A stretch of DNA of 43,826 nucleotides from an uncultured Hyphomonadaceae bacterium (GCA_964442925.1 CAYUEM010000001.1:1-43826); one strand, 5' to 3'; counted from the stretch's first letter, positions 2,591 to 34,519 are shown. Notes: generated by a model from the letters alone, not told the origin. Program-made: numbers and translations.

Positions 2591-2743
2591 TATTTTTTCT
2601 GTTTTGTTGGGTTAGGCTGTGGGGGCGCAAAGGCGTCTCGCGTCTTCCGTTTCCGGGCAGATGGGGTGCCGCGTCAGACAGGTGCGTGTGCCGTGCAAGA
2701 GATATCTCGCCATAACCAGCCAAATCAGGCTAGACTGCCCGTT

Positions 2744-4747
2744 ATGAAGGGTATGACGGAAAACCAATGGTCTGCGCCTGATCCGGCGGCACCGGTTTCG
2801 CCGCCAGCGCACCCGGCCGTAAGTGTTCATCACGCCATGGACACCGCGCGCGGCGCAGGCAGCTGGCTGCCTTGGACGGGTCTGGTTCTGGCGGTCTGCT
2901 GGTGGGCTTGCGTCGCCGTCAGTCTGGTCACGGTGCTCGACCTTGACGCGATCATGCGCCAGCCTCCGGTCACGCTCGCAGCCGGCGCTCTGCTGGCACT
3001 GATGCCCGGAATGCTGCTGCTGATGGCGGGTTTCATGGCGCGTGAAAGCGCACGTGCCGGCGCCGCCAACGCGCTTGTGCTGCAGGCAGCCGACCAGTTG
3101 CTTTCCCCTGCTGCGCGTATTGGCGAGCACGCAAATACGCTCGCCGGCCAACTCGCCGCCAGCACGGAAGAGATCAATCAGGCAATGAACCGGGCGCTGT
3201 CTTCGATGAAGGCCATGGCCGGAGAAATCGGCGATGAGCGGATGCGGCTGGAATCGGTCAGCTATGCGACCGCCGACAATGCGCGCGAACTCTCCACACA
3301 ACTGACACGCGAACGCGAAGCACTGGAAAGCCTCGCACGCGAATTGAAGGCGCAGGGCGAAGCCGTCGCACAGGCGATCCCGCGGCAGGCCGAAGCGATG
3401 GTTGACGCCTCACGCCAGGCCGGCGAAGATATCCGTCGCGCCGATGATGCGCTGGATGGAAGGCTTCAGCACCTGCAAGCCACCCGCGGTGAGATTGGCC
3501 GCCAATTGCAGCAGCTTGAGCAGATCACAGCCAGCGCCGGAGAAAAGAGCGAAGGGCTGATGTTCGCCATCGCCCGGATTCAGGAAAAGCTCGAACAGTC
3601 CGAACAGATGGTCAAGGCTGCCGTTCGCTCGGGCGAGGTTGCCGCAGCTGCTGCCGGTTCGACCGGGGACGCCCTGCGCGCGGCTGTCGATACCGCGCTG
3701 GATGGTGCGCGCAGGGCCAGTCAGGACATCGAGGCCAGCACCCGCGCTGCGCAGGCCGAGACGGCGCGCGCACTTGATGGCCTGCACCGAAAGGCTGAGG
3801 ATGTCGCCGCTGCGATCCGCGCTGCCGGCATGGCCGCGCGCGCAGAAACCGACATTACTGAACAGCGCCTGGCGAAGGTCTCCAGCGCTTTCCGCTCCGC
3901 CGTGTCTGGGCCGCCCGACTCACAGCCGCAGCGCGCCGCCGACACGACGCAAGCCGCGTCCCGATCCGCAGAGGCTGCCGACCCGCCCCCCGAGGCTCTT
4001 CCGATATCTGGTGAGCGCAAACCCGGCATATCCGGAGCGATCGACGCGCCGCCGCGACAGGTTGACGAAGACCTGTTCGAGACCCTGTCACGTGACCGCG
4101 CGGCGCACGCAGAAGACGAGGCGCGCGGCGAGGAAATCGCCATTGGCTGGCCACGCAAGAGCGGAAATGCGCCGGGCAGTTTCTCGGAGATTTTCGACCC
4201 TGACCCCGCTGCCACGTCCGGCCCCGCAGCGCCTGCGCCTGGCTTTGGGCCGACCGAAGCGCCCGACCCCAGCAATGTGGTGCGGATGTCGCGTGCGCCG
4301 GTCGGTGAGACGCCTCCCATAAACAAGGATGCCGGCTGGACCAGCATTCTGTCAGACATGGACCGTTCGGCAGCCGGCCAGCTGCCACGCGAAGACACCG
4401 CTGAGGAAGTCATCTCGCGGCTGGAAACCTCTGGCATCGCGCTGGCCAGTATTTTCCGCCCCCGCGACAAGAAGAAGATTGCGCTGGCCTCACGCAAGGG
4501 CGAGCGCCTGCGCAGGGCGGCAATCCTCAGCGCAGCAAAAGGCGAGGTCGACCGGGTCGAGAAACGTCTCAAAGCGGACGATTATCTCTGCCAGCTGGCA
4601 ATGGACTTCCACGCGATGGAAGAACCGGACGCAATTGCCGCGCTCGACCGGACCCAGAAATCCAGCCGCAATGCCAGCCCGCGCCTTTCCGCTTTCCTGC
4701 TGCTGGATGCTGCGCTGAGCGAAGAGCGGATGCAGGATTTCGGCTGA
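2744..4747 (+). CDS. Membrane-anchored coiled-coil / Ala-Pro-rich protein, function unknown
   Basis: Long ORF. Hydrophobic segments (LVLAVCWWACVAVSLVTVL, LLALMPGMLLLMAGFMA) are followed by about 300 aa of heptad-like Ala/Glu/Arg/Gln-rich sequence, then a Pro/Ala low-complexity region and a conserved-looking C-terminal domain. Start uncertain (2666, 2744 or 2753). Confidence 0.6.
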   Translation: MKGMTENQWSAPDPAAPVSPPAHPAVSVHHAMDTARGAGSWLPWTGLVLAVCWWACVAVSLVTVLDLDAIMRQPPVTLAAGALLALMPGMLLLMAGFMARESARAGAANALVLQAADQLLSPAARIGEHANTLAGQLAASTEEINQAMNRALSSMKAMAGEIGDERMRLESVSYATADNARELSTQLTREREALESLARELKAQGEAVAQAIPRQAEAMVDASRQAGEDIRRADDALDGRLQHLQATRGEIGRQLQQLEQITASAGEKSEGLMFAIARIQEKLEQSEQMVKAAVRSGEVAAAAAGSTGDALRAAVDTALDGARRASQDIEASTRAAQAETARALDGLHRKAEDVAAAIRAAGMAARAETDITEQRLAKVSSAFRSAVSGPPDSQPQRAADTTQAASRSAEAADPPPEALPISGERKPGISGAIDAPPRQVDEDLFETLSRDRAAHAEDEARGEEIAIGWPRKSGNAPGSFSEIFDPDPAATSGPAAPAPGFGPTEAPDPSNVVRMSRAPVGETPPINKDAGWTSILSDMDRSAAGQLPREDTAEEVISRLETSGIALASIFRPRDKKKIALASRKGERLRRAAILSAAKGEVDRVEKRLKADDYLCQLAMDFHAMEEPDAIAALDRTQKSSRNASPRLSAFLLLDAALSEERMQDFG

Positions 4748-10361: not shown

Positions 10362-10497
10362 GATCGCCTGACCGCTTGTAGGCCCTTCTTTGACCGATCA
10401 CCAGAGCCAGCCTTGGCGCAATGACAGTGATTTAAGCCGCGCAAGGGTGGCCGTAGGGCCGTGCGGGACATATCATGTTACTGAGGGGGACCTTCTG

Positions 10498-11772
10498 ATG
10501 TCATCATTTCTTGCCTATGCCCCGCTTAACGCGTCCAGTCCGGTTGCCTGTTATCTCGCAGTGCGCGACCAGACGACCGCGCTGGCCACCACGCTTTCAG
10601 ATGCCGACGCCACGGCCCAGTCGATGGAGGATGCCAGCCCGGCGAAATGGCACCTCGCGCACACCACATGGTTCTTCGAGAGTTTTCTGCTCAAGCCGCA
10701 TCTGCCCGGATACGAGGTCTTTGCAGACGGCTATGACTATTTGTTCAATTCCTATTATGAGGGTGCCGGCGAGCGGCATGCCCGTCCCCGCCGGGGGCTG
10801 ATCACACGGCCGGGCCTGGGTGAAATCGGCGACTATCGCGGCCATGTCGATGCAGCGATGCAGCGGCTGATCGAGGCTGGCGGCGACGCTCGCTTGTCGG
10901 GGCTGATCACGCTCGGGCTCAATCACGAACAGCAACATCAGGAATTGTTGCTGACCGATATCCTTCACCTGTTTGCGCAAAATCCGCTGCGGCCTGCGTT
11001 CCGCGATCCTGAACCGCTGGCGCTGGATGCCGGTGCCCCTCCTGGGCCTGACTATTTCCCGTATCAGGGCGCGATCGCCCGGATCGGCCATTCCGGCGAA
11101 GCTTTCGCATTTGACTGCGAAAGCCCGCGCCATGACGTTCTGCTTGCGCCTTTCGAGCTTGCTGCGCGCGCTGTCACCAATGGTGAATGGATCGATTTCA
11201 TCGCCGATGGCGGTTATCAAAACCCGCACATCTGGCTGTCGGACGGCATCGCCCGGGTGCGCGAAGCCGGCTGGAAGGCCCCGCTCTACTGGCAGAACCG
11301 CGATGGTGAATGGTGGTCGATGACCCTGCGTGGTTTCCAGCCCGTCGATCCGGCTGCGCCGGTCTGCCATGTCAGTTTTTACGAGGCCGAAGCCTTCGCC
11401 CGCTGGGCTGGCGCGCGATTGCCAACCGAGGCGGAATGGGAGGTTGCAGCCAGCACTGTGCCGGTTGATGGCAATTTCGCATCCACAGGCCGCCTGCGAC
11501 CGCGTGCGCAGACGGGTCTGGGTGCGTATCCGGCTGGCCTTTTCGGCGATGTCTGGGAATGGACTGCCAGCGCCTTTCTGCCCTATCCCGGCTATCGCCC
11601 CCTGCCGGGAACGGTCGGCGAATACAATGGCAAGTTCATGAGCGGCCAGATGGTGCTGCGCGGCGGCAGTTGTGCCAGTCCGCAGGGACATCTGCGCGCC
11701 AGCTACCGCAATTTCTTCCCGCCCGACAAACGCTGGCAATTTTCCGGCGTCCGGCTTGCGCGCGACGGCTAA
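10498..11772 (+). CDS. egtB: Ergothioneine biosynthesis sulfoxide synthase EgtB (DinB_2 + FGE-sulfatase domains)
   Basis: DinB-like N-domain ([32 protein letters not shown]) and a C-terminal FGE-sulfatase-like domain ([25 protein letters not shown]). Followed by egtD. ATG at 10498 preferred to TTG at 10390. Confidence 0.85.
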
Positions 11773-11800
11773 CGCGCGCGTCTCAGCGAAAGAGGACCAG

Positions 11801-12745
11801 ATGACAGATAAGGATGCGCCGGCGGCTGACCCCGCCTTCCAGCAGAATGTGCTTGAGGGACTTGCAAGGCCGCAAAAGGCAATCTCCTCGCGCTGGCTTT
11901 ATGATGAGATCGGCTCGCATCTGTTCGAACAGATCACACAGCTGGATGAATACTATCCCACGCGCACCGAGGCGGCGATCTTTCAGGCGGCCCGCAGCGA
12001 AATCGCGCAGGCCTGCGGAGCCGGGGCCGTGATCGTGGAATATGGTGCCGGCGCAGCGATCAAGACGCGGATCCTGCTGGCGGCACTTGAGCGGCCCTGC
12101 GCTTATGTTCCGCTCGATATCTCGGAAGATTTCCTGCACGCGGCGGCGCGCGATCTGGCGCGGGATTTTCCCGGTCTCGATATCCACCCGATCGCAACCG
12201 ACTTCATGACACACACGGACCTGTCGCAGCTGCCCGATTGCGGCGGGCGCCGTATCGGGTTCTTTCCCGGCTCGACGATTGGCAATCTGACCGATGCGCA
12301 GATCGGTGTGTTCCTGACCGAGGCACGCCGCGCACTTGGCCCGGATGCGCGCTTCCTGCTGGGCGTCGATCTGCGGAAATCGCCGGAAATTCTCATTCCC
12401 GCCTATGATGATGCACGCGGTGTGACCGCCGCCTTCAACCTCAACCTGCTGCAGCGCATCAACCGCGAGCTTGGCGCTGATTTCGATATCGCCGCATTCG
12501 CACATGAGGCGCGATGGAATGATGCAGAAAGCCAAATCGAGATGCATCTCGTCGCAAGGCAGGCGCTGCGCGTGCATCTGGCTGGCCTGACGTTCGAGTT
12601 TTCCGCGGGCGAGAGCATACTGACCGAAATTTCCCGCAAGTTCGAAATCGCATCGCTTGCCCGGCTGGCCGCGCAAAGTGGCTGGACGCTGGACCGGCAA
12701 TGGAGCGATCCGGCCAATTATTTCTGCGTCGCCCTGCTGAGCTGA
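11801..12745 (+). CDS. egtD: L-histidine N-alpha-methyltransferase EgtD
   Basis: EgtD-type sequence (KAISSRWLYDEIGSHLFEQITQLDEYYPTRTE, VEYGAGAAIKTRILL, FFPGSTIGN). ATG at 11801 follows AAAGAGGA; the upstream extension from 11672 overlaps egtB. Confidence 0.85.
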   Translation: MTDKDAPAADPAFQQNVLEGLARPQKAISSRWLYDEIGSHLFEQITQLDEYYPTRTEAAIFQAARSEIAQACGAGAVIVEYGAGAAIKTRILLAALERPCAYVPLDISEDFLHAAARDLARDFPGLDIHPIATDFMTHTDLSQLPDCGGRRIGFFPGSTIGNLTDAQIGVFLTEARRALGPDARFLLGVDLRKSPEILIPAYDDARGVTAAFNLNLLQRINRELGADFDIAAFAHEARWNDAESQIEMHLVARQALRVHLAGLTFEFSAGESILTEISRKFEIASLARLAAQSGWTLDRQWSDPANYFCVALLS

Positions 12746-12755
12746 AGCCGCGGCG

Positions 12756-12784
12756 TTGACAGCCTGCCGGCTTCTGGTTCTTAA
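12756..12784 (+). promoter_or_regulatory. Weak sigma-70-like promoter candidate upstream of the RyR/protease operon
   Basis: TTGACA at 12756-12761, a 17-nt spacer, then TCTTAA at 12779-12784, in the 83-bp gap between egtD and the 12829 ORF. The -10 match is poor. Confidence 0.2.
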
Positions 12785-12828
12785 CTGTTCGGTAAGGGAA
12801 TGGGGGAAACCGGGCGGGGAGCCGGGAC

Positions 12829-14865
12829 ATGGCGTCAGAAGATGGCAAGACACGGCAAACCCGCTTCGGCGCGATGGGACAGCGCAGTGTTTGGGATGTG
12901 CCGATCGGCTGGCTGCTGATTGGCGGCGTTATGGCGATTGTGCTGGCCTTTGCCGGCTGGATGAGCGTGCTGCGTCCACAGGAAACCGGCCTGGCGCGGA
13001 TCGGCGAGGCGGTCTATCGCGCTCTTGCCGTCAACACCATGTCCGACATCTATTCCCGGCCGATGAACGACGCGGATCTCGATCCTTCTGCGCCCGCTTA
13101 CGGCTTTTTCCTGCTGACACTGGCGCGCTGGATTGGTGCCCTGGTGTTTTTCCTGACCCTTGCCAAAGTCGTCGTCCGCCTGTTCTGGCAGAATGTCCTG
13201 ACCTGGTGGGCAAGTCGTTTCTACAGCGATCATGTCGTGATTGCCGGCGACCGGCCATTTGCCCGCCATGCCGCTGAGGAAGCGGTGCGAAAGGGGCTGA
13301 AAGTCGTGCACTTCATGCCGGGTGGCCAGGAATTGGTGCGCGATGGTGTTCTCACTCTGGACAGTGATATCGGCCTTGAGGGCATGCTGCGGCTGTCGGG
13401 TGCGCATCGCGCCCGCTCGCTGGTCTTTGCCTTTTCCGACAATGCCGAAAATGCAGACCTGGCGCGGCGCTGCTTTGTCATGGACGCCTTTTCCGAGGCC
13501 GCAGAGACCCATAAGCGCCGCGAAACCGGCCAGATCGGCCCGCGCGAACGTGTCGGCCCGCACATTTTCGTCATGCTGGATGATGACTGGTTCGAACACC
13601 GCGAAGAGCTCAATTACGCGTTTCACAAAGCCCCCGAAGGCGAGGGCACCACCAGTGGCGGCAAGCTTGACTCCATCGTCGAGATCATCAGCGAAAGCCG
13701 CGCAGCTGCGCGCGCCGTGCTGGGTCGTCACCCGCTTTTCACGCTGCAGGAGGGCGGCATCCAGCATACGCTGCTGCTGGGCTTCGGAACGATGGGCGAA
13801 GCGCTGCTGACGGAGATTTGCGAAAGCCAGCGGATCGACCCGGACCGACCGCAGAAGATCACCATTCTCGATCCTGACCCGGAAAGCTGGGCCCGGTTCG
13901 AGCGGCGCTGTCCAGGCTGGCAGGAGGTGTTCGACGGCGCTTTCTTCCCAGCCCGCCTTGATGCGCCGGGCGTGCACGAAGCCGGCCTTCTGCAGCGTCT
14001 CAATTCAGCGCCATTGACGGCGGCTTATGTCGTGACGGGTGCAAGGCTCGACCCGGTCATTGGCGCTGCGCAGCTCAAACAGTGGCTCGACCAGCAAAGC
14101 GAAGAAGGCCGGCTCGACGCGGAGGATATGGCCTTCCCGGTCTTTGCCTGTGTGCGTGGTGGCTCGGCGCAGTCCGGCCCGCTTGCGGCGCAACAGGTTC
14201 AGATCGCCGGCGATGGTCCGGTTATGGCGCGCCTGCCGATCATCGCCTTCGGAGCCTGGCCGGAAGTGGTCGCCGCCGCGCGCGTTCTTGACGAGGAGCC
14301 CGATGCGGCTGCCTTTCTGGTCCACAGCGTGCACAATCAGCTGTTCAGCCCCGATCCGCCGACAAACTGGAGCCAGGTCGAGGAGGTCAACCGATATTCC
14401 AGCCGGTCAGCTGCCAATTTCATTCCGGCGCTGATCCATGCGGCGGGCTATGACCTTGGTGACTGGCTGAAAGCGAGCGCGCCCCTGCCGCCTTCGATCA
14501 ACCGGTTGCCGAAGATCGCTGCGGGCCGGCAACTGGCCGAAGGCGACAGCGAGGAAATCTATCTCGCCAGGCTGGAACATGCGCGCTGGCGGGCGGAACG
14601 GTTCCTGCGCGGGTTTCGCTGGGCGGAGCAAACGGACAAGCCGCGCCGGCGTCATGCCGATCTGGTTGAGTTTGCGCAACTGCCGGCTGCCGCGCAGGAC
14701 TACAATATCAACTATGTCCGCACCCTCTCCGACAGTTTGCTACCAGCTGCGCGCGGCGCACTTGCGCCTGACCGTCCGGCAGCGCACCGCATCCTGCTGC
14801 GTCCCAGCGACATGGCGTTGGCCGCGCGGTCCAGAACACGAGCGGAGGCGCTTGAAAATGCCTGA
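12829..14865 (+). CDS. Membrane protein with Rossmann (TrkA-N/RCK-like) region and C-terminal RyR-like domain (gene A of candidate system)
   Basis: Two N-terminal hydrophobic helices (IGWLLIGGVMAIVLAFAGWM; FFLLTLARWIGALVFFLTLAKVVV). A degenerate Rossmann start (HVVIAGDRPFARHAAEEAVRKGLKVVHF) and a second with an intact GxGxxG (LLLGFGTMGEAL, about 13771-13800). C-terminal LARLEHARWRAERFLRGFRW...RRHADLVEFAQLP resembles the RyR domain (PF02026). Confidence 0.75.
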   Translation: MASEDGKTRQTRFGAMGQRSVWDVPIGWLLIGGVMAIVLAFAGWMSVLRPQETGLARIGEAVYRALAVNTMSDIYSRPMNDADLDPSAPAYGFFLLTLARWIGALVFFLTLAKVVVRLFWQNVLTWWASRFYSDHVVIAGDRPFARHAAEEAVRKGLKVVHFMPGGQELVRDGVLTLDSDIGLEGMLRLSGAHRARSLVFAFSDNAENADLARRCFVMDAFSEAAETHKRRETGQIGPRERVGPHIFVMLDDDWFEHREELNYAFHKAPEGEGTTSGGKLDSIVEIISESRAAARAVLGRHPLFTLQEGGIQHTLLLGFGTMGEALLTEICESQRIDPDRPQKITILDPDPESWARFERRCPGWQEVFDGAFFPARLDAPGVHEAGLLQRLNSAPLTAAYVVTGARLDPVIGAAQLKQWLDQQSEEGRLDAEDMAFPVFACVRGGSAQSGPLAAQQVQIAGDGPVMARLPIIAFGAWPEVVAAARVLDEEPDAAAFLVHSVHNQLFSPDPPTNWSQVEEVNRYSSRSAANFIPALIHAAGYDLGDWLKASAPLPPSINRLPKIAAGRQLAEGDSEEIYLARLEHARWRAERFLRGFRWAEQTDKPRRRHADLVEFAQLPAAAQDYNINYVRTLSDSLLPAARGALAPDRPAAHRILLRPSDMALAARSRTRAEALENA

Positions 14866-16639
14866 TTATAACAAACTGATTTCCGATGGTGCCGGCACGC
14901 TGGTGCGGTTTCCCTCCGCAAATGACCCGGCTTTTACCCCCGGCGAGACCTATATTTCGGTCACGATCCGACGGATCAGCCTGAAGCGTGGGCGGGTGAA
15001 TTTGCGTAAATACGGGCCTTATGTCTGGGGCGTGCTCGGCCAGACAAGTTTTGACCAGCAGGTTGAACTGGCCGGCGTGTTTGCCCCTGCGCGCGAGGAT
15101 GACATGTTCGCCGGCGCTGCCGGGATCCCCGGTTCACAGGTTGGCGCACCGCTCGCGCAGCCGGAATTTTCCGCCGCCCCGGGGCCGATGCAGGCCGAAA
15201 GCTTTCGCCGGCTCGATCGGATGTTGCTTGTCAATCGCCAGCTGACGCCGCGTCTCGTATTTCAGGATGACGGACCGTTCGAGCTTGGCTTCGGCGCAAT
15301 CCTGCAAAAGGATCATCTCGCAGCGACTCTCAGCCTCGTCGAGCAGGTCGTCAAATCCCCGGTCGCGCAATTTGTCTCTGCGCTGGTGCCGCCGGTCGGC
15401 AAGATCGTAGACAGCGCATCGATTGCGGGCACGGTGCGCCGCCTGCTTGGCCGGCTGGATGACGACAAGGGCGCTGAGCGCCTTGCAGCGGTTTCAACGC
15501 GCCTTTCCCAGTTGCGTAACGAGGGTGGACAGCTGCTGGCGGGCACCTATGCGATGATTGCTGAAGATGATCTGCCCGGCGATCTGCGTTTTGATCCACA
15601 GCGCCAGTTGGTGATGCGTGCCGATACGCCTTTCGAGGATGCGCCGTATCTCGCCTTTGATCTTCAGTGCGAGACCACCCGGCCCGACTGGGGCAGCGTT
15701 CCCGATGTCAATTCGGCCTGGCGCACGCTGGAGGCGCAGGCGATGGATGGCGATGTCGAGGCGGCGCTCGCCAGCTTCCGCAGTGCGGTCTATCTGTCGC
15801 CGGATCTCGTGCCGGCCGACAGTCGCCGCCTGCATGAGGCGGCAAGGCGCAAGCTGGCGCCACTGATGGGCGGCGCGGAAAGCTTCTCGCTCGGCGGGCT
15901 GAAAATGCCGGCGCTGGGCCCGCTCGGCAAGGCGCTGCGCGATTCCTATGAAGAAGTGATGGCTGGTGGGTTTGGCGAGGTCCGCTCGGAATGGGATCGT
16001 TTTCACCGCTGTCATGAGGTGATGCGGATCAATGAGGGCGGTTATGTCGATCATCCGTCCGATCCGGGCGGGGCGACAAACAAGGGTGTGACCCAGGGCA
16101 CCTATGACGCCTGGCGCAAACGCAAGGGCCAACCGCGCCGGCATGTGCGCGAGATCGACGAAGCCGAAGTCATGCAGATCTATTTCGAGGGCTACTGGCG
16201 GGCCGGAAACTGTCACCGCATGCCGAACGAAGCGGTCGCGCTGGTCCTGTTCGACGCCTGCGTGAACCATGGCGCCGGTCCGGCAATGAAATTCATCCAA
16301 CGTGGGGCGGGGCTTAGCCCGCAGGATGTTGATGGCGCATTTGGCCCGCGCACGCTGCGTGCTGTCGAGATGACCGAACCGACGCTGCTGGTTGGCCGCG
16401 CGCTGGATGCGCGCTGGCGTTTCTTCGAGAAGATCATGGCCCGCAATCCGAAACTGGAGGATTTCCGCCGTGGCTGGCGCGCCCGGGTCGACGGGCTGCG
16501 CGCGATCACGCATCAGTGGCTGACCGGACAGGAAAGCGCCCTCGCGCCCCTTCCGGACGTGCTCGCCGAACATATAGCGCCGCCGCAGCTTGATGGAATT
16601 GACGCGGCAGGCCCGGAACATTCGGAGGCTGGATCATGA
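14858..16639 (+). CDS. Leaderless fusion of an unknown N-domain to a GH108 muramidase + PG_binding_3 module (gene B)
   Basis: ATG at 14858 with GGAGG at 14844-14848; it overlaps the gene A stop (ATGCCTGA). The C-terminal INEGGYVDHPSDPGGATNKGVTQGTYD is the GH108 (PF05838) core with the catalytic Glu. The following VDGAFGPRTLRAV...WRFFEKI resembles PG_binding_3. No signal peptide or TM segment is visible, and the first ~400 aa are unassigned. Confidence 0.8.
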   Translation: MPDYNKLISDGAGTLVRFPSANDPAFTPGETYISVTIRRISLKRGRVNLRKYGPYVWGVLGQTSFDQQVELAGVFAPAREDDMFAGAAGIPGSQVGAPLAQPEFSAAPGPMQAESFRRLDRMLLVNRQLTPRLVFQDDGPFELGFGAILQKDHLAATLSLVEQVVKSPVAQFVSALVPPVGKIVDSASIAGTVRRLLGRLDDDKGAERLAAVSTRLSQLRNEGGQLLAGTYAMIAEDDLPGDLRFDPQRQLVMRADTPFEDAPYLAFDLQCETTRPDWGSVPDVNSAWRTLEAQAMDGDVEAALASFRSAVYLSPDLVPADSRRLHEAARRKLAPLMGGAESFSLGGLKMPALGPLGKALRDSYEEVMAGGFGEVRSEWDRFHRCHEVMRINEGGYVDHPSDPGGATNKGVTQGTYDAWRKRKGQPRRHVREIDEAEVMQIYFEGYWRAGNCHRMPNEAVALVLFDACVNHGAGPAMKFIQRGAGLSPQDVDGAFGPRTLRAVEMTEPTLLVGRALDARWRFFEKIMARNPKLEDFRRGWRARVDGLRAITHQWLTGQESALAPLPDVLAEHIAPPQLDGIDAAGPEHSEAGS

Positions 16640-19600
16640 GTTTCGACACCACTCTCAACCCCGCAGAAGAGCGCGCCGAGTTCGAGGCTGCGCGCGCCGC
16701 ACTGATGGGGCTGGGACGCGAGGAGGCCCGGATCGACGCCATCGAAGCGGTGGCGCGGCTTGTTGGAGAGGCTGATGATCTGGGTGCTGAGGGCTCTGCG
16801 GAACTGCTCAGCGTCGCACAGACACTGCAGGACCGGCGCGCATTCGGGCTCATGCTTGTGCTGTGTCTGCTTGCGCGTCAGGCCGGTCTTGCCACTCCGA
16901 AACTGCGCCAGAAGGAAGTGCAGGCGCTGATCGAGCTTGGCCGGCTTGAAGAAGCCGTGCGCGAGGCGCGGGCACTGGCCGAACTGACGCGCAGCGCGCA
17001 GCCCGATGATCCCGCAGAGACTGCCAACTGGGCATTGTGGCGCACCGCACAGGGCAATATCGGGCGCGCCTACAAGCAGGCCTATGTCAATGCCGCGCTG
17101 GCCATGGCGGCAGGCGAAGGCGGCGACCGACAGCCCGATCCGCAGGACCTGAAAGCGGCGGTCGAAACCTACAGGGCCGTCTGGGAGCGCCATCAGGGTC
17201 CGGGCACGACTTATCATTGCGTCAATGCGGCAACGCTGATCATTCGCGCGGTGCGTGATCGTGCGACCGGTCGTGAAGGAGACTTCAGCTGGGCGCTTGA
17301 GGAAGATGCGCGCCGTCTGGCCGGGGACATCCTTCGCACGCATGAGAAAGAACTGCGCGCCGCGCTCGCGCCGGGGCCGCAAGCGGGCGGCGATGTCTGG
17401 ACGCTGGCAACCTGCGGGGAAGCCTATCTGGTTCTCGGACTGATGGAGGATGCAGCCCTTTGCTATGGTGCCTATGCGGGCCTTAAGGACGCGGATGCCT
17501 TCGAGATCGGCTCATCGCTGCGCCAGCTTGAGCAGGTCTGGCTGTTCGACGGCAAACGCGATGATGCTGGTGGGCGGATCGTGCGCCTGTTGAAAGGGGC
17601 ACTGCTCAATCTCGAACCGCGCGGCGCGGGCAGGGCGGCGCTGGATATCCAGCGCGAAAGCGTTGTTCTGTCACCACAGGAGGCCGGGCTGATGCGGGCC
17701 GACCTTGAAGGGCGTGAGACGATCGGCGAGGGCCCACCGCGTGACGGCTATGAAGCCTATTTCCAGAAGCGCGGTGCCGCGCGGGCGGCCGGAGGCATGG
17801 TCGATCTCGCCCGCATCCTCTCGGCTGCCGCCCGGGCACAGAGCGTCTGCGCAATCGAGACGCTGCAGGATGGCCGCTGGCAGAGGATTGGCACCGGTTT
17901 CGCCGTCAGGGGCGATGTGTTGCATGATGACTGGGGCGATCTCGACCTGATCATGTCCAATCATCACGTCGTGGCCCAGTCCGACGGCGCGCTGTCGAGT
18001 TCCTATCGCCGCTGCCGGGCCAACTTCGTGGAGTATGATCCGGTGTTGCAGGCCGAGCATGAACATCCGGTCTATTTCGATGACATCCTGTGGCGCTCCG
18101 GCGAGCGGGCAATGGACACGGCGGTTCTGGTGCCGCGCGGCAAACTGCCGGATGTGGCGCGGATCATCACCCGGGATGAAACCTCCAATTACCTGCCGAA
18201 GCGACCCGTGGATGGCGTCGACGGCACGGAAATGCATGTCGTGATCCTCGGCTTTCCCGGCGGCGGGGATATGCAGCTGTCATATGGTGACGAGATGCTG
18301 CTTGATCACAATGCCTGCGAGCCTGGCGCGCTTCCCGACCCTCAGCGGACCCTCAACGGCCAGCCTGTGCGCCTGCACTACCGCACGCCGAGCCGACCGG
18401 GCAGTTCCGGCAGTCCGGTCTTCATGGCCGGAAGCTGGGAACTGGTCGGCATACACCATCGCGGCCAGCGCGACTGCCCGCGCCTGCCGCCAAAACAAAG
18501 CACCTATGAGGCGAATGAAGGCATCTGGCTGCCATCGATCCGTGCGGCCATTCGCCGGGCCAGCCTGAAACTGGGCTCAGCCGATACGCCCGATTCCGGC
18601 GAGCCGCTGCCGGCGTCCGGCCACGCGCCGCAGGGGGAGCTGTTTGGTGCGGCGGCTGCGGCTTATCGCACGCTGCGCAATGCCATACCGGATGCCAGCG
18701 CCCTGCCGCGTCCGCGCGCATCTGAGCATGGCGGCCAGGTCAGCGCTGGTTCGGCCCCGGTGATCGGACGGCCCATCGGCACGGCGCGGCAAGCGGCCGG
18801 GGGCGTGCCACGCGGCGGCCTCGACATTCCGGGGCACACGGTTTTCCTCGCGCAATATGACAATGGCGATGTGGCGGATCGCTATTTGAAGCCGGGCCAT
18901 TTTCGCGGTGAAATGGAGCAGTTTCGCGCCCGCACACAGGGCTTTGAGACCGTGATCGGTGATGACAACCGCACCCAGATCCACGACACGGGTGCCGACC
19001 CGTTCCGGATGATCTGCGCGCTTGTCGTGCACTGGCCGCACATGCCGCCGACCAGCGGAACCGGCTTTCTGGTGGGCCAGCGCACAGTGCTCACTGCGGG
19101 CCACTGCATCCTGCCCGGACCGGGCTTTCCAGACCCTGCAGCGATCGAGGTGCGTCCGGGCCGGTCCGGCACAAGGGAGCCCTTTGCCGATACGCTGGGC
19201 GCGCTGGCAGCCGAGCGGATTTCGCTGCATACGCAATGGTCGGCGCGGTTTGATCCGCGCTTTGATGTCGGAGCGATCCATCTCGACAAGCCGGCAGGTG
19301 AGACCGTCGGCTGGTTCCGTGTCGGCGTGCGCGATCCCCAGCTGCTGACACGCCACTGGGCGCATGTCACCGGCTATCCCGGCGACAAGATCACGCAGGG
19401 TGCCGGTGAAGCGGGCGGAGCGCTCTATGCCGCCGAGCAATGGCACCATGCCACACCGATTGCGCAAGTGCATGACGGGCGCGTCTATTATCCTGCCGAT
19501 ACATTTGCCGGACAGAGCGGCGCACCCGTCTACATCCTCGATCAGGCCGATGGCCTTGCCACCGTGATCGGCGTGCATGCCTATGGTGTCGGTCCGAATG

Positions 19601-19689
19601 CGGGCGCTTTCGCGATGGAGAACAATTCCGCCGCGTGGATTGATGCGGCGATGCTGCAGGTGATATCAGACTGGAGGAATGTGGCATGA
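16636..19689 (+). CDS. TPR-like helical domain + two trypsin-fold serine protease domains (gene C)
   Basis: ATGA overlap with gene B and GGAGG at 16624-16628. The N-terminal ~350 aa are all-helical (DVWTLATCGEAYLVLGLMEDAALCYGAYAG is TPR/DUF4071-like). Protease 1 has SNHHVV (His), MDTAVLV (Asp) and GSSGSPVF (Ser, about 18400-18423). Protease 2 has LTAGHCI (about 19090), FDVGAIHL and AGQSGAPVY (about 19507-19533), V8/Glu-endopeptidase-like. Confidence 0.8.
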   Translation: MSFDTTLNPAEERAEFEAARAALMGLGREEARIDAIEAVARLVGEADDLGAEGSAELLSVAQTLQDRRAFGLMLVLCLLARQAGLATPKLRQKEVQALIELGRLEEAVREARALAELTRSAQPDDPAETANWALWRTAQGNIGRAYKQAYVNAALAMAAGEGGDRQPDPQDLKAAVETYRAVWERHQGPGTTYHCVNAATLIIRAVRDRATGREGDFSWALEEDARRLAGDILRTHEKELRAALAPGPQAGGDVWTLATCGEAYLVLGLMEDAALCYGAYAGLKDADAFEIGSSLRQLEQVWLFDGKRDDAGGRIVRLLKGALLNLEPRGAGRAALDIQRESVVLSPQEAGLMRADLEGRETIGEGPPRDGYEAYFQKRGAARAAGGMVDLARILSAAARAQSVCAIETLQDGRWQRIGTGFAVRGDVLHDDWGDLDLIMSNHHVVAQSDGALSSSYRRCRANFVEYDPVLQAEHEHPVYFDDILWRSGERAMDTAVLVPRGKLPDVARIITRDETSNYLPKRPVDGVDGTEMHVVILGFPGGGDMQLSYGDEMLLDHNACEPGALPDPQRTLNGQPVRLHYRTPSRPGSSGSPVFMAGSWELVGIHHRGQRDCPRLPPKQSTYEANEGIWLPSIRAAIRRASLKLGSADTPDSGEPLPASGHAPQGELFGAAAAAYRTLRNAIPDASALPRPRASEHGGQVSAGSAPVIGRPIGTARQAAGGVPRGGLDIPGHTVFLAQYDNGDVADRYLKPGHFRGEMEQFRARTQGFETVIGDDNRTQIHDTGADPFRMICALVVHWPHMPPTSGTGFLVGQRTVLTAGHCILPGPGFPDPAAIEVRPGRSGTREPFADTLGALAAERISLHTQWSARFDPRFDVGAIHLDKPAGETVGWFRVGVRDPQLLTRHWAHVTGYPGDKITQGAGEAGGALYAAEQWHHATPIAQVHDGRVYYPADTFAGQSGAPVYILDQADGLATVIGVHAYGVGPNAGAFAMENNSAAWIDAAMLQVISDWRNVA

Positions 19690-20045
19690 AGAAGAGCCCT
19701 GAAGCGGAACATCTGACGGCGATCGCACGCACTGTGCATGAGGCCGTTCGGGCATGGTCGGCCGCAAACGGCCAGAAGCCGATCCCACACTGGAACCGCG
19801 CACCGGCGTGGATGCGCGCATCGACCCGTGAAAGCGTCCAATTCACAATCAACAACCCCGAAGCCCCTGACAGCGCGCAGCACGACCAGTGGATGGAGCA
19901 AAAGCTGCGTGACGGCTGGGTCCATGGCAAGGTCAAGGATGCTGGCAAGAAGACCCATCCGATGCTGGTGCCTTATGAACAGTTGCCGGACATGGAAAAG
20001 CGCAAGGACGCTCTTTTTCGCGCCATCGTGCAGGCACTGGTGTGA
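19686..20045 (+). CDS. Standalone RyR-domain protein (gene D)
   Basis: ATGA overlap with gene C and GGAGG at 19673-19677. IARTVHEAVRAWSAANG...WMEQKLRDGWVHGKVKDAGKKTHPMLVPYEQLPDMEKRKD matches the RyR domain signature (GW.yG...d...K.HP.LVPY.eLp..eK.kD). Confidence 0.8.
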   Translation: MKKSPEAEHLTAIARTVHEAVRAWSAANGQKPIPHWNRAPAWMRASTRESVQFTINNPEAPDSAQHDQWMEQKLRDGWVHGKVKDAGKKTHPMLVPYEQLPDMEKRKDALFRAIVQALV

Positions 20046-20130
20046 ACCGAGCCGGGCCTGAGCGCAACGAAGGAGAGGCTTTACCCGTCCCCGTGGCGCC
20101 CTAAGTCTTTTCCGGAAAAGGAGAGCAGGA

Positions 20131-20841
20131 ATGCGGGCGATTGTGTTTGGCGTCGGCGGCGGTATTGGGCGGGCTCTTGCCGCTGAACTGGTCGTGCGCG
20201 GCACCGAAAAGGTGATTGGGGTCTCGCGCAAGCCGCCAGAAAACCTTGGCGATGTGGAATGGGTGCGCGCCGACATCACCGATGAAGAGTCTCTCGCCAG
20301 CCTTGCCGCACAGTTGAAAACCCGCCAGCCGATAGACTTGGTGATCATTGCGACGGGCATCCTGTCTGATGGTGACAGCCTGCAGCCGGAAAAATCCTAC
20401 CGTCAGCAGGACACGGCCAATTTCGAGCGAGTGTTCCGTATCAACACGTTTGGACCGGCGATGGTGGCCAAACACTTCCTGCCGCTGATGCCGGCGAAAG
20501 GCCGCGCCGTGTTCGCCGCGCTGTCGGCGCGCGTCGGCTCGATATCCGACAATCGGATTGGCGGCTGGCATGCCTATCGCGCCTCGAAAGCAGCTTTGAA
20601 CATGCTGATCGCCAATTATGCGATTGAACAGGGTCGCCGCAACGCGGCATTCATCGCCGTCGGCCTGCATCCCGGCACAGTGGACACAGCCCTGTCACAG
20701 CCGTTTCAGGCAAATGTGCCAGAAGGAAAACTGTTCACCCCGGAATATTCCGCCGCATGCCTGCTTGATGTGATCGAGGGCCTTGGCCCCGATAATAGCG
20801 GTCGCGTTCTCGACTATGCCGGAAAGCTGGTCCCGGCCTGA
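20131..20841 (+). CDS. SDR family oxidoreductase (CsgA/C-factor-like short-chain dehydrogenase)
   Basis: N-terminal GVGGGIGRALA nucleotide-binding loop and catalytic YRASKAALN motif. Own AAGGAGA RBS upstream. Confidence 0.8.
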   Translation: MRAIVFGVGGGIGRALAAELVVRGTEKVIGVSRKPPENLGDVEWVRADITDEESLASLAAQLKTRQPIDLVIIATGILSDGDSLQPEKSYRQQDTANFERVFRINTFGPAMVAKHFLPLMPAKGRAVFAALSARVGSISDNRIGGWHAYRASKAALNMLIANYAIEQGRRNAAFIAVGLHPGTVDTALSQPFQANVPEGKLFTPEYSAACLLDVIEGLGPDNSGRVLDYAGKLVPA

Positions 20842-32283: not shown

Positions 32284-33282
32284 TTGGCCAAGACTGTATT
32301 GGTGACCGGCGGCGCCGGCTATGTGGGCAGCCATTGCTGCAAGGCCTTCGCGGCAGCCGGCTGGAATGTGGTGGTGTTTGACAATCTTTCGCGTGGCTGG
32401 CGCGATCTTGTCAAATGGGGTGACCTGATTGTCGGTGACCTTCTCGACCCGGTTTCGCTCGACAAGGCTTTCGCCCGGGTCAGGCCTGATGCGGTTGCCC
32501 ATTTCGCTGCACTTGCCTATGTCGGCGAGAGCGTTTCCGATCCCGGCCTTTACTATCGCAACAACACGACAGGCTCGATGCAACTGCTTGATGCCATGGT
32601 CCGGGCGGGGACCGACAAGCTGATCTTCTCGTCGACCTGCGCGACCTATGGCGTGCCCGAGCGCGTGCCGATGACCGAAGACATCCCGCAAAACCCGATC
32701 AATCCCTATGGCTGGTCGAAACTGTTCGTCGAGCGGATGCTCGCTGATTATGGCGCTGCGCACGGACTGCGTTCGGTGCCCCTGCGTTATTTCAATGCGG
32801 CAGGCGCCGATCCCGATGGCGAGACCGGCGAGCGGCATGAACCCGAGACCCATCTCATACCGCTGGCCATTCGCGGCATGATGCAGGATGGCTTCAAGCT
32901 GACGATTTTCGGCGATGATTTCGACACGCGCGATGGCACCTGCGTGCGCGACTATATCCATGTCACCGACCTGGCCGACGCACACACGCGCGCGCTGGAT
33001 TATCTCCAGCAGGGTGGTGCATCGGACGTGTTCAACCTCGGCACCGGGACCGGAACGACCGTGCGCGAAATCGTCGAGGCTGTGGAGCGGGTTTCCGGGC
33101 GGCAGGTCAACAAGTCGGTTGGCCCGCGGCGCGCCGGTGACCCCCCGGCGCTTCTGGCCAGCGCGGAGAAAGCCCGGCGCGTGCTTGGCTGGGAGACGGC
33201 ACATTCCGATATCGACACGATCATCTCGACCGCCTGGCGCTGGCACCGCGAAGAGCAACAGCGCGGCCATGCGGGCGCATGA
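32284..33282 (+). CDS. galE: UDP-glucose 4-epimerase
   Basis: VLVTGGAGYVGSH Rossmann motif, SSTCATYG, YGWSK catalytic Tyr-x3-Lys. TTG start at 32284. Confidence 0.88.
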   Translation: MAKTVLVTGGAGYVGSHCCKAFAAAGWNVVVFDNLSRGWRDLVKWGDLIVGDLLDPVSLDKAFARVRPDAVAHFAALAYVGESVSDPGLYYRNNTTGSMQLLDAMVRAGTDKLIFSSTCATYGVPERVPMTEDIPQNPINPYGWSKLFVERMLADYGAAHGLRSVPLRYFNAAGADPDGETGERHEPETHLIPLAIRGMMQDGFKLTIFGDDFDTRDGTCVRDYIHVTDLADAHTRALDYLQQGGASDVFNLGTGTGTTVREIVEAVERVSGRQVNKSVGPRRAGDPPALLASAEKARRVLGWETAHSDIDTIISTAWRWHREEQQRGHAGA

Positions 33283-34412
33283 GCGCGTTTCCAAGACACA
33301 TCCTTGCCTATTGCGACAAGCTGTTCACGCCGTCGGAAAGCTTCATCCCGCGCGGTTACAGCGCCTTTGAGCGGCTGGTTCCAGTGTATATCGGCCATGA
33401 ATTGAAAGGCCCGGTGCCTGAGGGAGCCGAAGTCATCGAACTGGGCCCGCTGCACGGTCCGGGTGGAGAGGCCGCATTCAAACAGCTCGGCACAGTCTCG
33501 GCCCGGCTTGAAGAGACACTGCGCGCGCTTGAGCCGGTCGCGGTCCATGCCAGCTTTGGCAAGTCTGGCGCTTATGCCCTGCCGATCGCGCGCAGGCTCG
33601 CCCTGCCGCTGGCGGTTACCTATTATGGCGGCGATGCGACCAAGACCGCCAATACAAGGGACAGTTTCATCCGCGTCTACAATCGCCGGCGTGCGTCGCT
33701 GTGGAAGGAAGCCGCGCTGATCCTGCCCTGCTCGGACTTTATCCGGCGCGAGCTTCTTGCGCGCGGGGCCCCGGATGAAAAGATGGTTGTCCACCATAAC
33801 ACCGCCGACCCGGAAAAGTTCCAGCCCGGCGAGAAACAGAATATCCTGCTGTTTGCCGGACGCTGGACCGAGAAAAAGGGCATCGACACGCTGATTGATG
33901 CGCTGGCGCGCATTCCCGGCAAGCTTGAGGGCTGGCGGGTGCGTTTGCTGGGCGATGGTGAACTGAAACCTGATCTTGTCGGCCGGCTGGAAGCGGCCGG
34001 TGTTCAGGCCGAACTGCCCGGCTGGATTGCGGCTGACGAGATGCCAAAGCATTTTGCCGAGGCGACGATTGTCTGTGTGCCATCGCGGCGCGCACGCTCG
34101 GGCGATGCGGAGGGGCTGCCGCTGGTCTGTGTCGAGGCGATGCTGGCCGGCTGCGCGCTGGCAGCGACACGCCATGCGGGGATCCCGGAATGCGTGGAAG
34201 ATGGTGAGACCGGCTATCTCGTCGATGAGGGCGATGATGCGGCACTGGCCGGGTGCCTGTCTCAGATGCTCGGCGAGCCGGCGCGCACGCGGGAAATGGG
34301 CGAGGCCGGTCGGGCGCTCGCACTGGAACGCTTCAACCTGAAAAATCAGAGCCGGCGTCTGGAAGATCACCTGATCGCCCTGGCAAGGGCCGGCGCAACC
34401 CTGCCGGCATAA
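33279..34412 (+). CDS. Glycosyltransferase family 4 (GT-B, WcaL-like)
   Basis: ATGA overlap with galE. C-terminal GT1/GT4 motif (EGLPLVCVEAMLAGCALAATRHAGIPECVEDGETGYLV). Confidence 0.8.
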   Translation: MSAFPRHILAYCDKLFTPSESFIPRGYSAFERLVPVYIGHELKGPVPEGAEVIELGPLHGPGGEAAFKQLGTVSARLEETLRALEPVAVHASFGKSGAYALPIARRLALPLAVTYYGGDATKTANTRDSFIRVYNRRRASLWKEAALILPCSDFIRRELLARGAPDEKMVVHHNTADPEKFQPGEKQNILLFAGRWTEKKGIDTLIDALARIPGKLEGWRVRLLGDGELKPDLVGRLEAAGVQAELPGWIAADEMPKHFAEATIVCVPSRRARSGDAEGLPLVCVEAMLAGCALAATRHAGIPECVEDGETGYLVDEGDDAALAGCLSQMLGEPARTREMGEAGRALALERFNLKNQSRRLEDHLIALARAGATLPA

Positions 34413-34519
34413 TGCGGCCTCTTGTGAACATGTCATCGCGGCGGGTTTCCGCCGGGCACTGGCGCGGGTGAATTTGGCGCTGTAGGTTGCGCGCAGAGAA
34501 AAAAGGCAGGAGGAAGCGC

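Follow-up and report, generated by a model that had tools for sequence, protein, structure and literature searches.

Gene content of the locus

Gene B, a muramidase gene, and the four-gene cassette to which it belongs (A-B-C-D) were analysed in a stretch of 43,826 nucleotides (nt) from an uncultured Hyphomonadaceae bacterium (GCA_964442925.1 CAYUEM010000001.1:1-43826). This whole stretch is referred to as the window, and its coordinates are used unless another locus is named. All four genes lie on the plus strand. Gene A (12829-14865) encodes a membrane protein of 678 amino acids (aa), gene B (14858-16639) a 593-aa protein in which a long N-terminal region precedes a GH108 muramidase module, gene C (16636-19689) a 1017-aa protein with two S1 protease domains, and gene D (19686-20045) a stand-alone RyR (R12) domain of 119 aa. 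Consecutive stops and starts overlap by 4-8 nt and each gene has a Shine-Dalgarno sequence; judged by these signals, A-B-C-D is a translationally coupled cassette. A scan of positions 12600-20400 for promoters and terminators returned nothing above shuffled expectation. The evidence presented below suggests that gene B is probably a latent, protease-gated lytic effector, and that the four genes form a programmed-lysis, immune-like cell-death system.

Gene B carries a muramidase module and no predicted export signal

The open reading frame (ORF) of gene B extends mechanically from 14579 to 16639, and the ATG at 14858 was preferred as its start. A GGAGG lies about 11 nt upstream of this codon, a start here gives an 8-nt overlap with the end of gene A, and 22 homologues conserve the N-terminus that follows; for these reasons 14858 is taken as the true start, which is also where a first-pass annotation of the stretch had placed it. 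At the other end, the stop of gene B overlaps the start of gene C by 4 nt. Pfam matches and a homologue alignment divide the product into an N-terminal region (hereafter the N-domain), a linker, a GH108 catalytic domain, a PG_binding_3 domain and a tail. Long antisense ORFs occur inside A-C, for example at 15494-16621 on the minus strand (375 aa), opposite gene B. Such frames are typical of DNA with a GC content of 62-65%, and they were treated as non-coding because the plus-strand frames hold the conserved domains.

The catalytic domain, Glyco_hydro_108 (PF05838), was matched at residues 392-472 (nt 16031-16273; E 3.3e-26, 92.1 bits against a gathering score of 21.2) and is directly followed by PG_binding_3 (PF09374) at residues 476-543 (nt 16283-16486; E 1.2e-10, 41.8 bits against 24.6). 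Together, the two Pfam domains span nt 16031-16486, close to the 15990-16510 proposed in the first-pass annotation. Relatives of the GH108 module in the PDB (E 3e-22) include NMB1012 (2IKB/2IS5), 7DNP and Sen1395/TtsA (6V3Z/6V40), and the catalytic triad of TtsA has been published as Glu14/Asp19/Thr28 (PMC6996933). In B, Glu393 (NEGGY; nt 16034-16036) aligns with the catalytic Glu14 of Sen1395/TtsA, and Asp398 (+5) and Thr407 (+14) match the spacing of the triad. Across 23 B homologues, Glu393, Asp402-Pro-Gly-Gly and Thr407-Asn408 are invariant, and the position of Asp398 is variable (D/S/N). No catalytic substitution was found, in agreement with the earlier assignment of a GH108 domain with its catalytic Glu, and the muramidase looks catalytically intact. 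The same part of the protein matches the PHROG endolysin family phrog_315 (E 3e-40), and the NCBIfam model of a holin-associated N-acetylmuramidase (NF040573) is matched with partial coverage and below its cut-off (57.4 bits against 240).

No hydrophobic N-terminal stretch, signal peptide or transmembrane (TM) helix was detected in B by a hydropathy heuristic, which is not equivalent to SignalP or DeepTMHMM. The highest Kyte-Doolittle hydropathy over 19 residues is 1.28, compared with 2.3 for the TM helices of gene A. The protein is accordingly predicted to be cytoplasmic. Having no predicted export signal, it can get to the peptidoglycan only with the help of a partner or a membrane lesion; both the missing signal and this need had been anticipated in the first-pass annotation, and both are supported here.

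The N-domain belongs to a widespread family

The N-domain (residues 1-341, nt 14858-15880), as delimited by structural models and a profile search, had been described in the first-pass annotation as part of a long region without recognisable motif. Residues 1-377 indeed have no match in Pfam, NCBIfam, PADLOC or PHROGs, but the region is no orphan. A profile of these residues, searched against 1.84 billion representative proteins, retrieved a family of 332 proteins (clusters at 50% identity) at E <= 1e-3, 97 of them at E <= 1e-10; source annotations read 'hypothetical protein'. Most members stand alone, are about 330 aa long and match approximately residues 105-340 of the query, and the C-terminus of these stand-alone proteins carries a conserved peptide, 'LPxLxx[IL]x[LI][YF]'. 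In others, the N-domain is fused to a C-terminal GH108 + PG_binding_3 module (in several divergent lineages), to Endonuclease_NS (NucA) or to TIR_2; a weak GDSL lipase match and, in one case, an N-terminal Phage_lysozyme complete the range of partners. Over the N-domain itself, family members have no match in Pfam or PADLOC, and two stand-alone members have none in PHROGs. Profile matches to Pepco/Trypco1-2, EACC1, metallo-beta-lactamase (MBL), alpha/beta-hydrolase and CATASP families were likewise absent, both for B (Pfam, PADLOC and NCBIfam) and for stand-alone members (Pfam and PADLOC).

Two AlphaFold2 (AF2) models of the N-domain were compared, one with a predicted local distance difference test score (pLDDT) of 73 and a predicted template modelling score (pTM) of 0.71, and a second, with 108 sequences, at pLDDT 83 and pTM 0.80. 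Both place a beta-sandwich (strands within residues 5-75 and 122-149) before an alpha/beta part (153-272), a three-helix end (282-337) and a disordered linker; in the Hyphomonadaceae clade the sandwich is split by a predicted disordered insert (residues 84-120). Against the PDB, Foldseek returned nothing at E <= 1e-3 for either model, the best matches having E 0.017-0.019 and a TM score of about 0.5 on the target. In the top 50 of each model, where all matches were weak, C2 domains or C2-containing proteins (cPLA2, AIDA, DOCK, otoferlin, E-Syt, PI3K) were in the majority, and the models therefore point to a weak but reproducible C2-like sandwich. The first-pass annotation had named Foldseek as a route to the identity of this region; the structural comparison yielded nothing above these weak C2 matches, and it was the profile search that revealed the widespread family. 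A gasdermin identity was rejected, since no gasdermin, MACPF or other pore-former occurred among the top Foldseek PDB matches of the two models; PADLOC and Pfam gave no gasdermin match either. No conserved set of catalytic-looking residues is apparent in the N-domain, which is most likely a non-enzymatic module able to carry different 'warheads'.

Among viral structures in BFVD, only one significant match to the N-domain model was obtained, the uncharacterised protein A0A1V0SF49 of Hokovirus HKV1 (323 aa, E 7e-5, full length). The match, in itself uninformative, suggests that this giant-virus record either contains a stand-alone member of the family or is contaminated.

Proteases accompany the N-domain family

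Protease genes neighbour the N-domain family in most of the loci examined. Downstream of the gene for an N-domain-NucA protein lie two Trypsin_2 genes and one for a STAND NTPase (locus L006), other relatives show the order Peptidase_C1, N-domain protein, CHAT-nSTAND1, and N-domain-TIR fusions have an FHA-Trypsin_2 gene nearby. On a Sporomusa plasmid, a C1 peptidase gene precedes a distant stand-alone homologue. Stand-alone members were further collected in 80 metagenomic loci, of which 61 offered at least 1.1 kb of upstream sequence. In 25 of these 61, a gene for a protein of about 370-440 aa ends 4-43 nt upstream of the N-domain gene. This upstream family has no Pfam match, contains an invariant His, an invariant Asp and a GDSG-Ser, and its profile retrieves from the PDB almost only HtrA/DegS-type S1 proteases, weakly (E >= 0.0065). 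It is apparently a divergent S1 protease; examples within loci L030-L109 and elsewhere in the collection lie at L030:4758-5981, L039:2956-4140, L005:1682-2806 and L024:5940-6974. Other upstream neighbours of N-domain genes are Trypsin_2, CHAT, caspase, ClpP and EACC1 genes.

In the window, the neighbouring protease gene is gene C, whose domains were assigned with Pfam. Its TPR-S sensor-type repeats (about 16888-17238) are matched weakly, at 26 bits against a cut-off of 27.6 (40 bits in P0096, a fusion protein described below). Two S1 protease domains follow, the first at 17890-18453 (H444/D494/S591) and the second at 19060-19605 (H823/D877/S961), and both triads are invariant in 13 homologues. 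The best PDB relative of the second domain is the Bacillus glutamyl endopeptidase 1P3C (E 2e-9), with other glutamyl endopeptidases following more weakly. This domain also keeps a 'GVH' histidine (H981), which presumably corresponds to His213, a residue linked in V8-type enzymes to their specificity for Glu.

Candidate Glu-Ser processing sites in gene B

Gene B holds exactly three Glu-Ser dipeptides, at Glu114, Glu341 and Glu559, all located in segments that AF2 predicts to be disordered or past the ends of domains. Glu341-Ser342 (GAESFS; nt 15878-15883), where the N-domain ends and the linker starts, is the first predicted processing site: all 23 homologues have Glu341, with Ser or Phe as the next residue. 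The second predicted site, Glu559-Ser560 (TGQESAL; nt 16532-16537), lies just after the muramidase module and before an 'LPxL'-type tail; Gly557, Gln558 and Glu559 are invariant and the next residue is Ser in 21 of the 23 sequences, the surrounding linkers being otherwise variable. Glu114-Ser115 (QAESFR; nt 15197-15202) falls in the disordered insert of the sandwich, is kept in two of three subclades and represents a possible third site. At matching borders, 'AES', 'TES', 'FES' or 'QES' recurs in distant GH108 fusions (27-29% identity), in a fusion of B with C and in a fusion of A with GH108, and in eight of nine distant GH108-fusion lineages an 'ES' occurs no more than about 25 residues after the muramidase module. 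Furthermore, the LPxL-like peptide after each Glu-Ser site resembles the tail of the stand-alone N-domain family. If B were cut after Glu341 and Glu559, a muramidase of about 218 residues would be set free. The first-pass annotation had proposed testing whether gene C proteases separate the N-domain from the lysozyme domain; the evidence points that way, given the invariant Glu-Ser sites on both sides of the muramidase, the glutamyl-endopeptidase-like second domain of C and the existence of a B+C fusion protein.

Fusion proteins across the cassette

Natural fusions join the products of the cassette in several combinations. In P0096 and P0162 (about 1240 aa), the N-domain, GH108, PG_binding_3 and Trypsin_2 occur in a single protein, equivalent to B joined to C; TPR-S is also matched in P0096, and a RyR gene lies just upstream of it. 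In P0206 (L029:650-3412) and P0207 (both 920 aa), gene A homologues are joined directly to the linker and the GH108/PG_binding_3 module, and C and D homologues come after them. In these two proteins the N-domain of B is deleted and both Glu-Ser motifs are retained, the first reading 'AAESLAV' in P0206; the N-domain is therefore dispensable in at least one lineage. B and C are adjacent in all of the more complete Hyphomonadaceae loci. From the B+C and A-GH108 fusions it follows that A, B, C and D are functionally coupled.

Genes A and D: membrane and RyR components

Gene A begins with two N-terminal TM helices, located by hydropathy at nt 12898-12966 and 13096-13188. They precede a TrkA_N/RCK-like Rossmann domain (about 13237-13458) and another Rossmann-like region, and an RyR (R12) domain (about 14524-14748) forms the C-terminal part. 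RyR was matched in all 19 homologues and TrkA_N in 13 of them, and the RyR domain of A is related to RyR repeats in the PDB at a profile E of 1.8e-13. The positive-inside rule predicts a cytoplasmic location for the large domains of A and also for the GH108 that is attached to A in P0206. A K+-channel identity was considered for gene A and rejected: there is no Ion_trans Pfam match in 19 homologues and no channel match in the PDB, and TrkA_N and RyR alone are matched. The segment between the two helices (AVYRALAVNTMSDIY), with its pore-loop-like 'AVNTMSDIY', might tentatively be read as the pore helix of a K+ channel that lacks the GYG filter.

Gene D matches RyR in Pfam (E 1.4e-11), in the PDB (E 1e-20) and among phage RyR PHROGs (E 4e-38). 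In work from 2026, binding or hydrolysis of 2'/3' cyclic ADP-ribose (2'/3'cADPR) was demonstrated for RyR-domain proteins of phages, RyDEP being a phage cADPR glycosidase (PMC13232231). The R12 fold of RyDEP is shared by genes D and A. In gene D, H66/W69/H91/D108 stand at the same spacing as H75/W78/H100/D117 of RyDEP, an equivalence based on spacing and the PDB match instead of a curated alignment; in the RyR domain of A, mapped by spacing only, H584/W587/H609 are present but Asn (N626) occupies the position of the catalytic Asp. Gene D could bind or hydrolyse ADP-ribose-type signals. Whereas RyDEP acts in phage counter-defence, the RyR domains described here are host-encoded within a putative lysis cassette, and one belongs to a membrane protein. 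No NTPase or CARD was matched by Pfam in A-D.

Genomic setting and distribution

The cassette is flanked upstream by lptC, an RNase D-like exonuclease gene and egtB/egtD, and downstream by genes for a short-chain dehydrogenase/reductase (SDR) and a pseudouridine synthase; rpoN, sdhA, flhB and rlmN lie elsewhere in the window. No holin, phage gene (including structural genes), integrase or tRNA was found in the window. Close homologues of B form only 24 clusters, with an identical architecture in all, and in species-representative genomes they occur at 17 loci, all from Hyphomonadaceae or unclassified Pseudomonadota metagenome-assembled genomes. The order exo-egtB-egtD-A-B-C-D is found in about 15 Hyphomonadaceae species-level genomes, with B identities of 42-68%, and holds in all of the more complete close loci. 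Divergence among close loci is slightly greater for the proteins of the cassette than for those of the adjoining housekeeping genes (50-68% identity for B, 66-74% for EgtB). The conserved order and this divergence pattern indicate a stable chromosomal locus under vertical inheritance, not a mobile island. A prophage or plasmid origin was rejected: there are no tRNA or phage genes in the window, the N-domain has no PHROG, and no plasmid match was obtained for the N-domain of B. In addition, no relative of the N-domain was found in IMG/VR with patterns of the stand-alone family.

In the window (10390-12745) and in all of the more complete close Hyphomonadaceae loci (among L001-L021), the cassette stands directly 3' of the ergothioneine genes egtB-egtD, and its downstream flank varies (ClpB, beta-lactamase, SDR). 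This egt linkage is absent from a distant locus (L022; about 34% identity). One subclade (L003:5648-7936; also L004, L017, L019 and L020) has two extra genes between egtD and A, encoding a protein of 456 aa that is unmatched in Pfam and a Trypsin_2 protease of 297 aa. Elsewhere in the window, two ORFs have no Pfam match at E <= 1e-4, one of 693 aa at 2666-4747 on the plus strand and one of 478 aa at 33000-34436 on the minus strand; the latter overlaps a 377-aa ORF on the opposite strand.

A proposed mechanism for protease-gated lysis

Altogether, these results favour, with moderate confidence, a division of labour in which C serves as sensor-protease, B as latent muramidase, and A and D as nucleotide-responsive and membrane components. 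The TPR-S repeats of C would plausibly perceive a signal, and/or ligands of the adenine-nucleotide or ADP-ribose type would act on the RyR domains of A and D, which are plausible sensors; phage RyR-domain proteins bind or hydrolyse 2'/3'cADPR. The S1 proteases of C, the second of which is glutamyl-endopeptidase-like, would then be activated and would cut B after Glu341 and Glu559, perhaps also after Glu114, freeing the muramidase from the N-domain and the tail. The released enzyme may reach the wall through a membrane lesion, for which two candidates are present in the cassette: the 2TM protein A, with its RCK-like gating domains and no channel Pfam match, and the C2-like N-domain of B. The resulting lysis could constitute an abortive-infection-type defence or a co-opted lysis step. 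The location of N-domain relatives next to STAND, CHAT and TIR genes argues for abortive-infection-type immunity.

Several observations weigh against this interpretation. PADLOC recognises no system at the locus: A, B and D are unmatched, the protease matches of C are marginal, and the cassette sits amid housekeeping genes and is vertically inherited, with no variable defence island around it. As to membrane passage, no holin or pore-former is recognisable in the cassette, gene A has no ion-channel Pfam match, the likeness of the N-domain to C2 is weak (best E 0.017), and a pore-forming role of the N-domain is not required, because the nuclease and TIR fusions need no membrane lesion. As to cleavage, protease domain 1 of gene C has no match in the PDB by sequence, Glu specificity would be deduced from a modest E value (2e-9) together with the presumed role of His213, and the Glu-Ser motifs could be docking motifs instead of scissile bonds.

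Alternative explanations

A bolder version of the proposed mechanism is possible, and we advance it tentatively. Herein, the N-domain proteins may constitute a novel class of death effectors that are activated by proteases and directed to membranes, with the previously unrecognised divergent S1 protease as their core partner. In Hyphomonadaceae, the family would have captured a GH108 muramidase, and B, once cut at Glu-Ser, would open the inner membrane as well as degrade the wall, uniting the roles of holin and endolysin, while RyR sensing of ADP-ribose-type nucleotides would gate the system. The N-domain family would then work like gasdermin, Pepco and EACC1 and yet be unrelated to them.

Rather unlikely, at about one chance in five, is the explanation that an immune-like protease cassette has been co-opted for host-programmed lysis, for example for release of gene transfer agents (GTAs) or other contents, with B as the terminal wall-degrading enzyme; the mechanism would be as proposed above and the role would differ. 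As to role, this is the chief competitor of the preferred reading. The core-like character of the locus, found at the same chromosomal position in about 15 species between housekeeping flanks and without defence genes, fits such a role, as does its resemblance to LypABC of Caulobacter crescentus, a related alphaproteobacterium. LypABC is a trypsin-peptidase/NLR system on which GTA-mediated lysis depends, and the effector that carries out its final lytic step is unidentified (PMC13236601). Like the cassette, it is chromosomal, lies outside defence islands and has two trypsin-like peptidase activities, and its outcome is lysis; LypC (trypsin + NucA) also echoes the N-domain-NucA protein that is accompanied by two trypsin genes in L006. 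LypABC differs in having a CARD and an NLR ATPase, in whose place the cassette has TPR-S and RyR, plus an explicit muramidase. The missing CARD and NLR ATPase count against a co-opted role, as do the lack of a GTA cluster in the window and the company that N-domain relatives keep, since STAND, CHAT and TIR genes are typical of defence systems.

It is improbable that B is a muramidase for non-lytic export, as in TtsA-like type 10 secretion, or for local wall remodelling, such as stalk or bud morphogenesis in Hyphomonadaceae, with A as membrane partner and the proteases in maturation or quality control. Such a function would suit the match of the GH108 module to TtsA and Sen1395, secretion-associated muramidases without signal peptides, as well as the vertical inheritance of the locus and the physical fusion of A to GH108 in P0206. 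However, the cassette contains no holin, cargo or spanin-like gene, and an N-domain that is fused to nucleases and TIR and adjoins STAND and CHAT proteins fits cell-death effectors, not secretion. Very improbable indeed is an ordinary phage-type endolysin or prophage remnant acting with a holin, its N-terminal region being an accessory wall-binding or regulatory domain: the phrog_315 match, the weak match to the holin-associated NCBIfam model and the lack of a signal peptide, as in holin-dependent endolysins, are in its favour, but the phage holin-endolysin logic of the first-pass annotation is not supported for a vertically inherited locus whose synteny with protease and RyR genes is conserved across about 15 species, in a window with no phage structural, integrase, holin or tRNA genes. 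The NCBIfam model scores 57 where its cut-off is 240, PHROGs contain nothing that matches the N-domain, the stand-alone family patterns retrieved no relative from IMG/VR, and gene A encodes a 678-aa 2TM protein and no small holin.

Relation to known protease-effector systems and muramidases

The preferred reading of gene B as a protease-gated lytic effector has clear precedents. The logic of protease-licensed effectors is already known, and site-specific proteolysis of adjacent latent effectors has been established for other families (Evans et al., bioRxiv 10.1101/2025.11.14.688446). In the protease-effector modules described so far (trypsin-MBL, caspase-alpha/beta-hydrolase, Pepco/Trypco1-2, EACC1 and bacterial gasdermin; bioRxiv 10.1101/2025.11.14.688446; Kaur et al., eLife 2020, PMC7159879), a protease of the S1, caspase or CHAT type likewise has a TPR/STAND sensor and a latent effector as its neighbour or fusion partner, and short conserved sites in linkers or tails likewise suggest site-specific cleavage. 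Two-site excision of B at Glu341 and Glu559 would parallel that of the MBL and alpha/beta-hydrolase zymogens, and the cleavable C-terminal tail of bacterial gasdermin (bGSDM) and Pepco resembles that of stand-alone N-domain proteins. The cassette differs from these modules in that the N-domain matches none of the ten listed families (Pfam, PADLOC) and has a fold that is not gasdermin-like, and in that the warhead is a peptidoglycan muramidase that must cross the membrane. Lysozyme effectors recruited via EAD1 are mentioned by Kaur et al. for the alphaproteobacterial trypsin-NucA 'System 3' (PMC7159879); in the published accounts of protease-effector modules that were searched, no GH108 effector with this N-domain is described.

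With known GH108 muramidases (phage N4 gp61-type endolysins, TtsA/Sen1395 6V40/6V3Z and NMB1012 2IKB), B shares the catalytic and PG_binding_3 domains, the Glu/Asp/Thr triad and the lack of a signal peptide. Those enzymes are stand-alone proteins of about 165-200 aa, whereas B adds a 340-aa N-domain, conserved flanking Glu-Ser linkers and a 50-aa tail and shares its operon with proteases, not with a holin. Three elements appear to be undescribed in the libraries and papers searched, namely the N-domain family with its divergent S1 partner, the GH108 warhead with Glu-Ser flanks, and their coupling to 2TM-TrkA_N-RyR and stand-alone RyR proteins.

Implications

That death effectors are licensed by proteolysis has, in recent work, come to the fore as a dominant principle of bacterial immunity. 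To this principle, the locus would add an unnamed, widespread effector/adaptor family with its own divergent S1 protease partner, together with a host-side role for RyR domains. It would also add a muramidase as a protease-gated warhead, which raises the question of how a cytoplasmic wall enzyme exits without a holin. As a stable syntenic feature of a marine alphaproteobacterial lineage, the cassette may be a second example, after LypABC of Caulobacter, of immune-type machinery in programmed lysis.

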